The notes beneath the pieces are model-generated. The model had not been told where the DNA came from. It made no database searches and was given only the letters and a program-made list of their open reading frames with translations. A stretch of 46,776 bases of DNA from Candidatus Staskawiczbacteria bacterium. GTDB lineage: Bacteria > Patescibacteriota > Minisyncoccia > Minisyncoccales > Staskawiczbacteraceae. The stretch covers positions 1-46,776 of the forward strand of contig VGLO01000002.1 in NCBI GenBank assembly GCA_016866675.1. The letters run 5' to 3'. The translations under genes and the position numbers were made by a program. Every line of letters begins with the position of its first letter. Position 1 is the stretch's first letter. This document shows positions 22,537 through 46,776 of this stretch, piece after piece.

Positions 22537-23458
22537 TTAGCCCTTGCGAGCCTGTTCAAGGGTCTCGAATGGCCCCTTAACGAAAGACTCCTCGCAGTTA
22601 AGTTTTGAGGCCGCGTCCTTCAGATCTCGAGCTTGGGTGAAGCGAGTTGATGTTTTCTCGAGTTCCTCTGGTTCTCCGTCGGCGCAGATATAGCCGTCGA
22701 CGACCGTGATATACCACCACGGGAAGAGTAACTCCTCGAGTGACTTTCCCTCGGTGAGGAGTTGGCGAATCCGCTCGACATCGTACTGCTTGCCGCCCTT
22801 GGGCGTCTTGTAGTACTCGCAGATCTCGTCAACCGACATGGCGTCGATGGGCCAGTCGCCGCAGCGAATGTCGTCTTGGGTCTGTCGCGCTTTCGCATCG
22901 GCATTCAAAACCAGAATGTTCTCGGCGAACACCGGCTCCACGTTGAGACCAGCCTTCTTGAAGATTGGGAACGCACGCTCCATGTGATAGAGGAGTGTGA
23001 GAATGCCGATCTTCTCGTTGCCGGCAAACATCGGCCGGCGCTTGAGCATGATCGCCAGAAACGCAGCATTCTCTTCCGTGGTGGACGAGAGCGTTTCGGC
23101 GAGGATTCTCTTGCTGTTCAGATGCGGAGCACCGAGCCAATCGACTAGCCTTTCCTTTATGACGGTCGCCTCGGACTTCCGATCGTAGTCGGAGCCGGCA
23201 AACGCCTCAAAGGTGAATATAGACTTCTTCTGGGTCGGGTGCTGATCGTTAGATCTTTTCGTCGTCATAGCGCACTCCGAAGTTGCTCCCGCCCAGCACC
23301 ATCAGGCGCGGAGCGATGCCCTTGTTGAGGATGATGACTGAAGCCATCGTCCGCATCAGGGTATGAGGAGCCAAATCATACTTGCCATCCCTGTACATGA
23401 CTTGCGAGCCGAGCTGACAGACGAGATCGTACTCCTGGTTCACTGTCAAACCCTCCAA
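22537..23458 (-). pseudogene. DUF218/YdcF-like gene with unknown C-terminal domain, split by a +1 frame change; G+C-rich foreign-looking block
   Basis: The upstream 69-aa ORF (..PRLMVLGGSNFG..) and the downstream 243-aa ORF (..SEATVIKERLVDWLGAPHLNSKRILAETLSSTTEENAAF..) together read as one DUF218-type domain. The ORFs overlap at 23249-23268 in different frames. Composition is strikingly G+C-rich compared with both flanks. Confidence 0.6.
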
Positions 23459-33838: not shown

Positions 33839-34246
33839 ATGTCTCCCATAATAACAAAATTTAAGAAAAATAAAAGTAAAAAAAACCTCTCTTATTTTTT
33901 ATTTAAAATGGGAGGTGTTTTCATAGTTTTAATTTTCTTGGCATTAGTTTTTGTTGACATTAATGTTTATTATAAAAAAAACCAATTTAACAGACAAGTT
34001 AATTCATTGGAAAAAAAAATGAAAGATTTGGAAGAAAAGAATGAAAAACTAAGAGAAGGAATATCTAATGAGGATAATGAGCATTATATAGAAAGGGTTG
34101 CAAGAGAGGAGATGGATTTGCAGTTGCCGGGTGAAAAAGTAGTGTCTTTTATTGATGTTAAAGAAGACCCAAAAGAAGAATTGCCAGATGACGATTACTT
34201 AATTAGCTTTTGGCTTTCGTGGATAGGAGGGTTTTTCAAAAAATAA
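33839..34246 (+). CDS. FtsB/DivIC-like septum formation initiator
   Basis: N-terminal TM helix, a coiled coil (LEKKMKDLEEKNEKLREGI), then YIERVAREEMDLQLPGEKVV, typical of the FtsB/DivIC family. Confidence 0.75.
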   Translation: MSPIITKFKKNKSKKNLSYFLFKMGGVFIVLIFLALVFVDINVYYKKNQFNRQVNSLEKKMKDLEEKNEKLREGISNEDNEHYIERVAREEMDLQLPGEKVVSFIDVKEDPKEELPDDDYLISFWLSWIGGFFKK

Positions 34247-34251
34247 ATTAT

Positions 34252-34279
34252 TTGATTTTTTAGTTTTTTGTGGTATTAT
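34252..34279 (+). promoter_or_regulatory. Extended -10 promoter driving the noncoding locus
   Basis: TTGATT (34252-34257), 16 nt, TGgTATTAT (34271-34279). Confidence 0.55.
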
Positions 34280-34285
34280 TTGAAC

Positions 34286-34479
34286 AGAACATTAAGTAAG
34301 GCTCCAGCTGGACAGTTGAGTTTGTTGCGATAACAGGCCGCGACAATAATCCCTTAGCATAGGTTTTGCCTCGATAAGCTTTGAGGTACCCGTCTTTTTG
34401 ACCTCAAGCTATAAGGCAAAGACTGTTCACTGGTTCCGGACCGCGCGATCCTGGGGCACATCAGGACGCGCGGTCTTTT
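34286..34479 (+). ncRNA. Unclassified GC-rich structured RNA 1 (ends at terminator 34439-34479)
   Basis: No credible ORF. Closing helix 34304-34316 with 34422-34433. Hairpins at 34324-34344 and 34366-34419. Terminator GACCGCGCG..CGCGCGGTC followed by TTTT. Confidence 0.5.
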
Positions 34480-34653
34480 CAAAACAACTGATCGAGAAGA
34501 TGAGCAGAGTATGGTGCTTCTCATGGATGTGGTACTGTTGCTATCATGGGTTCTCCTAATGAGGTAGGACTTCTGGATTTACCAGTCAGCAGTACTAGCT
34601 TATTTTCTTTCGGTTGTCAGGGGCCGCGCGAGTTCGGACGCGCGGCCTTTTTT
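34480..34653 (+). ncRNA. Unclassified GC-rich structured RNA 2, or second attenuator (ends at terminator 34622-34653)
   Basis: GTACTGTTG (34532-34540) pairs with CAGCAGTAC (34587-34595). Terminator GGCCGCGCG-agttcgga-CGCGCGGCC followed by TTTTTT. Confidence 0.45.
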
Positions 34654-34705
34654 CTTTGCATAAAATATGATAAAATTTTCTTAGAGATAATTAAAACCAT
34701 CAACT

Positions 34706-35792
34706 TTGGCAGAAATAAAAGAAAACATTGATAAGATTAGCAAAAGAGTCCATTACTTGATGGACCGTCTTTGATGTTGAGGAGAAAGAGAAGGAAATTA
34801 AAGAATTAGAAAAAAGGACCCAAGAAAAAGATTTTTGGGAAAACCATCAGGAAGCAGGAAAAATCAGTCAAAGAATTTCAGATTTAAAAGAAGAGATTCA
34901 GTCTCTAGAATTGCTTACAAAAGAAGTCAAAGATTTAACAGATTTATTTGAGTTAGGACAAGATGTTAATCAGATCTATAATGAATTACAAGAGAAAGTA
35001 AATAAGGAAGAATTCAAGTTTTTTTTGTCTGAAAAGTATGATAAAAATAATGCTATATTAGAAATATTTGCTGGAGCAGGCGGAGTTGATTCTCAAGATT
35101 GGACTACAATGCTAAAGAGAATGTACGAAAGATACTGTGATAAAAAAGGTTTTAAGGTAAAAGTTTTAAGTCAATCTTTTGGAGAGGCCGGTGGACCAGA
35201 TGGAAGAATTGGTACAAAGTCTGCAACTATTGAAATTAAGGGCAAATATGCTTTCGGGTTTCTAAAAAAAGAGTCTGGGGTTCACAGACTCGTGAGAATT
35301 TCACCGTTTTCAGCGCAAAAATTAAGACATACATCATTTGCTTTGGTTGAGGTTTTGCCAGAAATTGAGGATTCAGTTGAAATAGAAATAAAACCAGAGG
35401 ACTTAAAAATTGATACATTTCGTTCATCCGGCCCAGGAGGGCAATATGTTAATAAAACAGAGTCAGCAATAAGAATCACTCATTTGCCAACTGGATTAGT
35501 GGTTGCTTGTCAGACAGAAAGGCTTCAAGGTAAAAACAAAGAAAAGGCGCTGAAAGTTCTTCATTCAAAGCTGTATAAATTAAAGGAAGAAAAGCATAAA
35601 AAAGAAATTAAGGAAATTAAAGGAGACTCGGTTTCAGCTTCATGGGGGAATCAAATAAGGTCATATGTGTTGCATCCATATCAAATGGTTAAAGATTTGA
35701 GGACACAATGCCAAACTAGTGATACAGAAGGAGTTCTAGATGGCCAGATTGATGACTTTATTAATGAAGAATTAAAAATGGTTAATAATTAA
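34706..35792 (+). CDS. prfB: Peptide chain release factor 2, with programmed +1 frameshift at CTT TGA (34769-34774)
   Basis: Frame 0 reads (TTG)AEIKENIDKISKRVHYLMDRL then TGA. The +1 frame continues DVEEKEKEIKELEKRTQEKDFWENHQ... into the track ORF, which carries SPF (RISPFSAQ) and GGQ (SGPGGQ). The start codon is uncertain. Confidence 0.88.
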
Positions 35793-37406: not shown

Positions 37407-37480
37407 TGCGGGATCGTCTAATGGTAGGACACATCCCTCTGGAGGATGGTATCTTGGTTCGAGTCCAAGTCCCGCAGCCA
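37407..37480 (+). tRNA. tRNA-Gln (anticodon CUG)
   Basis: Hand-folded cloverleaf. Acceptor TGCGGGA/TCCCGCA with U1-A72, G73 and encoded CCA. Anticodon arm CATCC-ctCTGga-GGATG. T arm CTTGG-ttcgagt-CCAAG. Confidence 0.9.
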
Positions 37481-37561
37481 ACACATGCTAAGCCGAGTGT
37501 CAAGGGCCCCTGAGGCAATTGTGCGACTAAAATCCCTACCGCACTAGGGTGGCTGAGTCCC

Positions 37562-37604
37562 GTTCGAATCCTAGTCCCGCAGCAGCCATATGCTAAGTCA
37601 GGTG
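37562..37604 (+). repeat. Diverged direct repeat of the tRNA-Gln 3-prime half plus trailer (copy 1 at 37457-37499)
   Basis: GTTCGAATCCTAGTCCCGCAGCAGCCATATGCTAAGTCAGGTG versus GTTCGAGTCCAAGTCCCGCAGCCAACACATGCTAAGCCGAGTG. Ungapped hand alignment gives 34/43 identical. Confidence 0.7.
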
Positions 37605-37672
37605 ACTGAGACGCATAAGGAACTTTTCCTTCGATTGCAAACCGGCTGAGCGCCGCATTCAGAACAAAAAAT

Positions 37673-37693
37673 TCGCCCGAAAGGCGATTTTTT
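37673..37693 (+). terminator. Intrinsic terminator ending the ftsEX-tRNA transcription unit
   Basis: TCGCC-cgaaa-GGCGA followed by TTTTTT, preceded by an A-run. Confidence 0.7.
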
Positions 37694-37707
37694 GTTAGAA
37701 TGAGTTC

Positions 37708-45865: not shown

Positions 45866-46776
45866 ATGCAGATTTTCTCTGCCGTCGGTCCTTTGGGCGC
45901 CGGGAAGACCACGCTCACGATTAACACCATCGAAGCGATGATCCGCGAAGGCATGACCAGCAAAGATCGCTGTGCCTACATCATCAACGACGAAGGGGCC
46001 CAGGTGGACGGGTCGCTCATTGAGCGCTCGGCCCGGGTACTGCCCATGACGAGCGGATGCTTTACTTGTTCGGATGAGGCAGAACTCCGCAAGAAGCTCG
46101 ATGAAATGGCCCAGCAGGAGATGGAATGGGTCTTCCTGGAAGGATTCGGGATGACCTCGGGCAGCGAAACCAAAAAGTTCCTCAAGTCTGTTCCGTACCC
46201 GTTCCGGATCGTCTGCGTGCTGGATTTCAAAAACCACCAGCGCAACCTCGTCAGGTACTCTGACGTGGTAAAGTCACAGGTCCACGCCGCTACCATCGGA
46301 ACCGGCCTCACCAAATATGGCAGGGCTTTGACTCTGATGGATTTGCCGGATACTGAGGTGCTCGACTTCGTCGCTCGTAACAGCCACGGCAAACCGGCAT
46401 TCCTGATCCCCGAGGATGGGTACCTTCCACTGGAGCTGCTTGCGAAAGCAGTTCAGCCTTCGGGAGTTGCCATGTCATCGTCATGCTCGCATCACGATCA
46501 TGGACACGACCACAGCCACCACCATCATGTCCATGCCATGCACGCTTACTCATACGAGTTGCGTGACGGCACGACATTCTCACAGGTAGTGTCGGCGTTT
46601 AGGGGCTGTCCGGCCTACATTTGGAGAATCAAGGGTGCGGTGGAAAGCAAGCTCTTTAACTCTGTCTTTGACGACTGGAAGCAGACTTCTCAGGATAATC
46701 GGTCATTCGTGACTTTCTACTCCCGAAAAGAAATCCAGCTCGGCACTGATCTGCCTGGACTCGCTCAACTCGTCGT
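45866..46776 (+). CDS. COG0523-type G3E P-loop GTPase (putative metallochaperone), 3-prime end beyond the window
   Basis: Hand translation from the ATG at 45866 (AGGAGA Shine-Dalgarno 6 nt upstream) has no stops to the window end. It reads MQIFSAVGPLGAGKTTLT..IINDEGAQVDG..SGCFTCS..WVFLEGFGM..CVLDF..SSCSHHDHGHDHSHHHHVHAMH..IWRIKGAV. Absent from the ORF track, which lists only antisense ORFs here. Confidence 0.85.
   Translation, partial: MQIFSAVGPLGAGKTTLTINTIEAMIREGMTSKDRCAYIINDEGAQVDGSLIERSARVLPMTSGCFTCSDEAELRKKLDEMAQQEMEWVFLEGFGMTSGSETKKFLKSVPYPFRIVCVLDFKNHQRNLVRYSDVVKSQVHAATIGTGLTKYGRALTLMDLPDTEVLDFVARNSHGKPAFLIPEDGYLPLELLAKAVQPSGVAMSSSCSHHDHGHDHSHHHHVHAMHAYSYELRDGTTFSQVVSAFRGCPAYIWRIKGAVESKLFNSVFDDWKQTSQDNRSFVTFYSRKEIQLGTDLPGLAQLV

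Follow-up and report, generated by a model that had tools for sequence, protein, structure and literature searches.

In the genome of a Candidatus Staskawiczbacteria bacterium, the genes divIC and prfB are separated by 459 nt (34247-34705) in which no credible ORF is present. The window analysed here, that is, the whole stretch of 46,776 nt (46.8 kb) of contig VGLO01000002.1, has in common with its relatives the gene order gatA-hyp-divIC-gap-prfB-ftsE-ftsX, and prfB, coding for release factor 2 (RF2), contains a programmed +1 frameshift at CTT TGA (34769-34774). The features that we recognise in the gap, together with the two flanking genes, are listed in Table 1.

Table 1. Features of the divIC-prfB locus, in window coordinates; T1 and T2 are the hairpins that follow segments 1 and 2.
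Feature	Position	Strand	Description and basis
divIC/ftsB-like gene, 135 aa	33839-34246	+	ORF list; Pfam DivIC PF04977, E = 6e-12; upstream neighbour of the gap
Candidate extended -10 promoter, sigma-70 type	34252-34279	+	TTGATT-16 nt-TGgTATTAT; consensus scan
Segment 1, 137-nt multi-helix domain	34300-34436	+	Closing helix around three hairpins, i.e., a four-way junction (MFE fold)
T1, 16-bp G+C-rich hairpin followed by UUUU	34438-34479	+	Folds at -29 kcal/mol
Segment 2, 135-nt irregular rod	34484-34618	+	~20-bp closing helix with G-U pairs, ~24-nt one-sided bulge, apical stem (MFE fold)
T2, strong intrinsic terminator	34619-34655	+	Terminator scan; 9-bp perfect core GGCCGCGCG/CGCGCGGCC, 12 pairs by scan count, then UUUUUUCUUU
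Extended -10 promoter element of prfB, TGATAAAAT	34668-34676	+	Between T2 and the prfB start codon; TGnTAnnnT aligned in relatives
prfB (release factor 2)	34706-35792	+	TTG start at 34706, aligned with the ATG of relatives; homologues with PCRF and RF-1 domains

Candidate promoter and terminators of the gap

An earlier note, made from the letters of this DNA, had described the gap as devoid of any credible ORF and as containing G+C-rich segments amid AT-rich flanks, and both descriptions proved correct. The three small ORFs of the gap (53-61 aa) had no Pfam match; the one of 61 aa had zero relatives among 5.8 billion proteins, and the one of 53 aa matched only low-complexity, multi-stretch sequences, none of them a real homologue. 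In the protein searches the translations served as proxies for the DNA, the aim being to reach a collection of 15 billion proteins. As for base composition, the G+C content measured in 100-nt steps across 34300-34650 was 0.46-0.56, compared with 0.17-0.32 in the sequence immediately on either side and 0.358 in the whole 46.8-kb window, so that the island lies 10-15 points above the genome average. The divIC-prfB locus recurs base-for-base identical, with zero differences, in five further samples. Sequencing runs that contain the organism include SRR7053297, SRR16108667, SRR7052762 and SRR16108675. It is therefore no assembly artefact, but a real and stably maintained sequence; by the same token, these samples offer no variation for a test of covariation.

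The extended -10 promoter noticed earlier at the beginning of the gap is indeed there, with 9 of 12 positions matching the consensus plus the TG extension. Since the consensus scan of this AT-rich DNA returned 10 promoter-like sites where 6.5 were expected, the match alone is not significant. The candidate promoter lies directly after divIC, where the syntenic relatives have a tRNA promoter, and it aligns weakly (z = 2.6) with the tRNA-Thr promoter found at the same position in one of them (L082, TTATTTGAT..TGaTAAATT); local alignment of the gap with the tRNA clusters of the relatives revealed no likeness beyond this promoter. Between the divIC stop codon (34246) and the candidate promoter no terminator was found, nor does any precede T1. 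Given that divIC lacks a terminator proper to it, the gene might simply have the structured region as a long 3' UTR, with two terminators in tandem at the end and no separate promoter activity, a reading with which the limited significance of the 9/12 match would agree. We consider it unlikely, because the promoter has the TG extension and occupies the place of the tRNA promoter that follows divIC in the syntenic relatives, and because a G+C-rich structured 3' UTR of 400 nt would, in our judgement, be unusual in a streamlined genome.

According to the earlier note, each of the two segments is closed by an intrinsic terminator. This holds for T2, which is a textbook case, but less so for T1, which fails the criterion of the terminator scan because only four U follow its hairpin; T1 is probably a leaky terminator or merely a structural hairpin. 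The CCGCGCG/CGCGCGG core that both stems were said to have in common is not only confirmed but extended, as both arms of T1 and T2 are near-identical (GG[A/G]CCGCGCGA and GGACGCGCGG[T/C]CTTTT, 25 of 27 positions), and the four matches to CCGCGCG in the 46.8-kb window, against 0.27 expected, all fall in these arms. The two hairpins are thus related copies. By contrast, the duplication that had been proposed on this ground does not extend to the bodies of segments 1 and 2, between which alignment detected no likeness (z = 1.8). T2 is orthologous to the terminator of L082 (GGGGCCGC..GCGGCCTTTTTTCTTT), and a terminator occurs at the T2 position, ahead of the prfB promoter, in other relatives as well.

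Folding of the two segments and known RNA families

The + strand of 34285-34660 folds with an MFE of -152.7 kcal/mol, whereas its dinucleotide shuffles reach -113.9 +/- 6.4 kcal/mol (z = -6.0), none of 100 shuffles being as good. This is the most stable 376-nt stretch in the whole window, exceeding even coding DNA of 57% G+C. The helices that had been drawn by eye all reappear in the MFE fold: CCAG.CUGGACAGU/ACUGUUCA.CUGG, UUGUUGCG-n9-CGCGACAA and the hairpin at 34366-34419 in segment 1, and GUACUGUUG/CAGCAGUAC in segment 2. Together with the promoter and T2 scans, the fold of the whole region supports the earlier description of a non-coding, strongly structured locus running from promoter to terminator.

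Taken separately, segment 1 has an MFE of -46.7 kcal/mol, with z = -3.4 on the + strand and -2.8 on the - strand, and its ends are joined by an interrupted helix of ~13 bp. Segment 2, whose ends form a helix of ~20 bp in which 4 positions are paired solely as G-U, has an MFE of -47.7 kcal/mol (z = -4.2) on the + strand, against -25.7 kcal/mol (z = -1.3) on the - strand. Being significantly structured on the + strand only, segment 2 points to a fold at the RNA level, along the direction of the promoter and the terminators, rather than to a DNA palindrome. G-U pairs number 18 on the + strand and 4 on the - strand; this excess was considered as a sign of strand-specific selection and rejected, since shuffles of the G+U-rich strand give an equal count. 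The stability of a single sequence is weak evidence of function, and the searches of relatives and collections, which returned no homologue, yield no covariation in favour of the fold.

The earlier note had been unable to assign the two segments to any known family and had called for a comparison with Rfam, which leaves them equally unassigned. At gathering scores, Rfam 15 recognised in the whole window only a tRNA-Gln (37407-37477). On 34150-34800, with permissive filters and E up to 10, it returned only noise, with no 6S, RNase P, SRP, tmRNA or 5S match, and on the loci of three to four relatives it gave only tRNAs and noise. ARAGORN found neither a tmRNA nor a tRNA in the gap, and no tag-like peptide frame ending in ..AA* was seen in its six-frame translation. 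As far as these models can tell, RNase P RNA, SRP RNA, 5S rRNA, 6S RNA, T-box elements and the curated riboswitches are excluded.

A housekeeping RNA so divergent in Patescibacteria that the Rfam models fail to recognise it, such as a 6S-like RNA polymerase-binding rod formed by segment 2, would escape these searches. The shape of 6S RNA (RF00013) is conserved more than its sequence, and segment 2 resembles it in being a rod of ~135 nt, of roughly comparable size, with paired ends and an internal unpaired region; moreover, Rfam and ARAGORN annotate no 6S RNA, RNase P RNA, SRP RNA or tmRNA anywhere in the window. We nevertheless regard this possibility as very unlikely. None of the 6S, RNase P, SRP, tmRNA and 5S models matches even at E up to 10, and the unpaired region of segment 2 is one-sided (~24 nt on the 5' side, opposite 0-2 nt), and not the two-sided central bubble of a 6S RNA. 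Furthermore, a housekeeping RNA would be expected in the relatives, but L081 has nothing at the site and no structural match was found in the others. A literature search on small RNAs, 6S RNA or MITEs of Patescibacteria retrieved nothing.

The prfB promoter and the divIC-prfB slot in relatives

The relatives were gathered through RF2 homologues, contig look-ups and a metagenome scan for the frameshift-site pattern, giving 16 distinct related loci, with an RF2 71-79% identical where measured. A contig search with RF2 was dominated by matches to a peptide pattern that is universally conserved, and the relatives that it returned were only 42-54% identical in RF2.

In the alignment, prfB is preceded by a conserved module made up of a terminator hairpin, a T-tract, the extended -10 element and a short leader, the terminator and the promoter being kept together in 17 of the 18 relatives irrespective of the sequence further upstream. 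The motif TGnTAnnnT stands at the aligned position in 17 of the 18 relatives, including those with no RNA-like sequence upstream, and in the closest of them (L081, prfB 79% identical) the site holds a coding gene, the terminator and the prfB promoter, and nothing else. This evidence bears on the suggestion, made in the earlier note, that the two segments are tandem riboswitch-like attenuators, i.e., a cis-acting leader of prfB in which T1 and T2 would gate read-through. The arrangement does resemble that of tandem riboswitch, T-box or attenuator leaders, in that a structured domain with a terminator hairpin directly behind it occurs twice in a row ahead of a gene for a translation factor, the second ending 50 nt before prfB. 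In addition, a GGCCGCG motif at 34337-34343, within segment 1, recurs in the 5' arms of T1 and T2 and could, in principle, compete for their 3' arms. However, a promoter of prfB lies downstream of T2 and is conserved in nearly all the relatives, so that the attenuator reading fails and an RNA made from the gap would not control prfB in cis. The elements are also absent from relatives whose prfB is 71-79% identical, the putative aptamers show no conservation and suggest no fitting ligand class, and no riboswitch or T-box model of Rfam 15 matches, either at gathering scores or with E up to 10. The present evidence largely refutes a cis-acting prfB leader, which we regard as barely credible.

The earlier note had set conservation and covariation of the spacer beforehand as a touchstone of its structured-RNA claim, and the spacer proved unconserved. 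By blastn and nhmmer, the relatives match no more of the gap than its final ~60 nt, corresponding to the T-tract and the prfB promoter. Covariance models of segments 1 and 2, each built from the single sequence and its MFE structure, returned only self-matches, also at the relevant loci and with the filters switched off. The relatives with a prfB 71-79% identical, the 12 metagenome loci searched and the collections of phages, plasmids and viruses yielded no homologue of the gap. In detail, BLAST gave no match in the phage and plasmid collections, and of the pattern scans of viral contigs two, with exact patterns, were empty, while the third gave chance matches in phage contigs of 54-71% G+C.

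What the relatives have in the place of the gap is highly varied. Six of them have coding genes upstream of the prfB module (L081, L091, L093, L094, L101 and L122). Four (L082, L086, L105 and L123) have after divIC a syntenic cluster of tRNA-Gly(CCC) and tRNA-Thr(CGT) genes, which begins with a promoter and is followed by 120-480 nt of structured sequence, and in L104 and L118 structured sequence alone occupies the slot. The spacer inserts of the relatives fold strongly (z from -3.6 to -14), have no sequence likeness to the window and are mutually unrelated, with two exceptions. The first is a rod of ~280 nt with 25-nt terminal inverted repeats, homologous in L082 and L118, with conserved blocks and a compensatory change in the terminal helix; L118 has another copy at a distance of 1.2 kb (nhmmer E = 4e-74), which identifies the rod as a multi-copy MITE-like element. 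The second is the fragment of a second tRNA-Thr allele that L097 and L105 have in common. In L103 an HNH-like ORF is inserted into tRNA-Thr, and a full second allele adjoins this ORF and the 5' fragment of the first allele, while L086 has in the slot a different, near-perfect hairpin of ~160 nt. The rod of L082 and L118 was considered as an orthologue of the RNA of the window and rejected, because it exists in more than one copy and nothing in the window matches it. In the window genome, another scar was observed beside tRNA-Gln.

The variety of the inserts and the replacement of tRNA genes across lineages qualify the divIC-prfB slot as a hot spot of insertion and replacement. Since the spacers of the relatives are structured yet unrelated, and at least one of them is multi-copy, the presence of an RNA gene here cannot be concluded from high foldability. 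The main rival of the reading that we prefer, favoured by the hot-spot context, is that the segments are decayed palindromic (MITE-like) elements or other debris of insertion, in which case the fold would be a by-product of inverted repeats, transcription incidental and a function at the RNA level absent. Bacterial MITEs and palindromic intergenic repeats, such as Correia, RUP, ERIC and REP, are frequently transcribed together with their neighbours and may act as promoters or terminators. Like them, and like the rod of L082 and L118, the segments of the window are intergenic, between convergent or co-directional genes, and fold strongly, with closing helices that resemble inverted repeats; in relatives, a demonstrated multi-copy element sits in this slot, along with the hairpin of L086, the HNH-like ORF of L103 and the tRNA-Thr fragments of L105 and L097. 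The unrelated but strongly folding spacers and the scar beside tRNA-Gln may be counted on the same side. On the other hand, no second copy of segment 1 or 2 was detected in the 46.8-kb window or in any locus searched, and no target-site duplication flanks either segment, the direct repeats found being the arms of the terminators. Segment 1 is a multi-branched four-way junction and no simple hairpin, the structure of segment 2 is significant on one strand only, and the G+C content exceeds the genome average by the margin given above. On balance, we hold insertion debris to be a distinct possibility, short of a probable one.

A possible lineage-specific transcription unit

Our preferred reading is that the gap contains a stand-alone, lineage-specific non-coding transcription unit, lodged in a hypervariable 'stable-RNA slot' formerly occupied by tRNA genes; judging from the sequence features, we give it a probability of about one half. 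According to this proposal, transcription would start near 34286 from the extended -10 promoter at 34252-34279, and the transcript would fold into the four-way junction of segment 1, followed by T1 with its strong hairpin and short U-tract. Part of the transcripts would stop at T1, yielding an RNA of ~190 nt, and the remaining ones would read through the rod of segment 2 up to T2, yielding an RNA of ~370 nt. T2, as the terminator conserved at this slot, would insulate the separately transcribed prfB, whose promoter at 34668-34676 would start transcription near 34684. From the sequence we infer an active first promoter, incomplete termination at T1 and stable products. As to its origin, a sequence inserted into the site, or replacing what was there, may have given rise to the unit, the terminator hairpin being duplicated in the process; in the relatives, this site has seen recurrent gain and loss of tRNA genes, of tRNA fragments and of palindromic elements.

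The unit agrees with what is expected of a stand-alone sRNA gene in having a promoter of its own, here a consensus match only, the intrinsic terminator T2 and no coding potential, but not in conservation among related genomes, of which none was found. Tandem sRNA genes sharing a terminator are known from OmrA/OmrB of E. coli, PrrF1/PrrF2 of Pseudomonas and LhrC1-5 of Listeria, families that are conserved across a genus or family and whose paralogues share their seed regions. Similarly, the gap would consist of two adjacent non-coding units on the same strand, with Rho-independent-type hairpins of near-identical arms and a promoter of their own, here a predicted one, outside the transcript of the downstream gene. 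By contrast, in the window likeness is confined to the hairpins, a promoter is evident for the first unit alone, no relative has the units, and their bodies, of ~135 nt and highly paired, are not those of short seed-bearing sRNAs. In its general features, the locus fits an orphan of the kind of a terminator-bounded bacterial small RNA locus or a structured intergenic insert, and none of its features distinguishes it from that kind.

A bolder form of the proposal is that the ~370-nt transcript represents an undescribed class of functional structured RNA, which would have arisen or been acquired recently in one lineage of Parcubacteria and taken over the promoter and the terminator of a lost tRNA operon, the equally structured but unrelated inserts of the sister lineages being its fast-evolving counterparts and not junk. 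To this we attach little probability.

In practical terms, a false lead is removed, in that prfB is not controlled by a riboswitch here. In this clade the spacer between divIC and prfB is a hot spot of recombination and insertion, where tRNA genes have been replaced and where an HNH-type insert and a multi-copy palindromic element are found; at such a site, a conserved RNA gene cannot be recognised reliably from foldability and G+C content alone. The genomes of Patescibacteria are minimal, and ~400 nt of maintained non-coding, G+C-rich sequence are costly to them. Provided that it is expressed and stable, the RNA would join the very few candidate small RNAs described for Patescibacteria.

Transfer RNA genes and structured inserts upstream of prfB

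In the related loci, the region upstream of prfB, the release factor 2 gene, holds tRNA genes and fragments of them as well as structured inserts (Table). In L103, a 5′ fragment of a first tRNA-Thr allele is followed by an HNH-endonuclease-like ORF and then by a whole second allele; in L105 and L097, the first allele is whole, and of the second a 3′ fragment, gattcttg[c/t]aagcggctc, comes after it. Gene replacement seems to target the tRNA-Thr(CGT) gene at this position. In L082 and L086, an intact tRNA-Gly(CCC) lies between a 5′ piece, GCGGGCA...GACCTTC, and a 3′ piece, GGTCG...TGCCCGCTCCA (degenerate in L086), which look like the halves of a single tRNA, so that one tRNA gene looks to have been interrupted by the insertion of another.

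L082 also carries a rod-shaped element, found twice in L118, with terminal inverted repeats of 25 nt, GAGTG[C/T]GGGATTCGAAC / GTTCGAATCCC[G/A]CACTC, within which a compensatory change from C-G to U-A was observed, and with the conserved core GGGAAGCYAAAAAATGGCTGATTTCTTCG. No match to this rod was found in Rfam. Since the two L118 copies lie no more than 1.2 kb apart in a single genome, the rod constitutes a MITE-like, multi-copy family in Parcubacteria. A further unrelated structured insert near prfB is the L122 gap, with several palindromes that are long and nearly perfect and a fold z of −9.3.

Start and frameshift site of prfB

In the alignment of window 34706-34774 with the relatives, the +1 frameshift site of prfB, CTT TGA, was kept throughout the clade together with the preceding codons (..Y-L-[MV]-D-R-L), and no obvious Shine-Dalgarno-like stimulator was observed 3 nt upstream of the site. 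The start codon is TTG in the window, whereas it is ATG in the relatives.

Other candidate acquisitions in the window

About 90 nt past tRNA-Gln, the 3′ end of this gene recurs as a second, degenerate copy, gttcgaatcctagtcccgcagc, accompanied by a repeated ca[ct]atgctaag motif and followed by a G+C-rich stretch and a terminator at ~37665-37695; the region looks like an att-type scar left by an integrated element. Moreover, in two coding islands the G+C content peaks at 0.63–0.64 (100-nt windows), compared to 0.36 for the genome. One encodes a DUF218 protein and the other a GTPase of the CobW/HypB/UreG type whose tail is rich in His, and both were probably acquired horizontally.

Table. Features of the window and of related prfB loci
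Feature	Position	Strand	Remarks
Rod copy	L082:3232-3512		~280 nt
Rod copy	L118:2117-2385		~280 nt
Rod copy	L118:935-1211		~280 nt
tRNA-Thr region	L103:2375-2990		5′ fragment, HNH-like ORF, complete second allele
tRNA-Thr region	L105:2650-2800		complete first allele, 3′ fragment of second
tRNA-Thr region	L097, upstream of prfB	reverse	complete first allele, 3′ fragment of second
tRNA-half-like pieces around tRNA-Gly(CCC)	L082:2808-2995
tRNA-half-like pieces around tRNA-Gly(CCC)	L086:3030-3215
AT-rich non-coding gap	L122:1161-1979		818 nt; upstream of small Cys-rich ORF and prfB
tRNA-Gln	window 37407-37477
Putative scar region	window 37478-37700		degenerate tRNA-Gln 3′ copy, repeat motif, G+C-rich stretch, terminator
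High-G+C coding island	window 22537-23268	−
High-G+C coding island	window 45866-46776	+	GTPase gene; continues past window end
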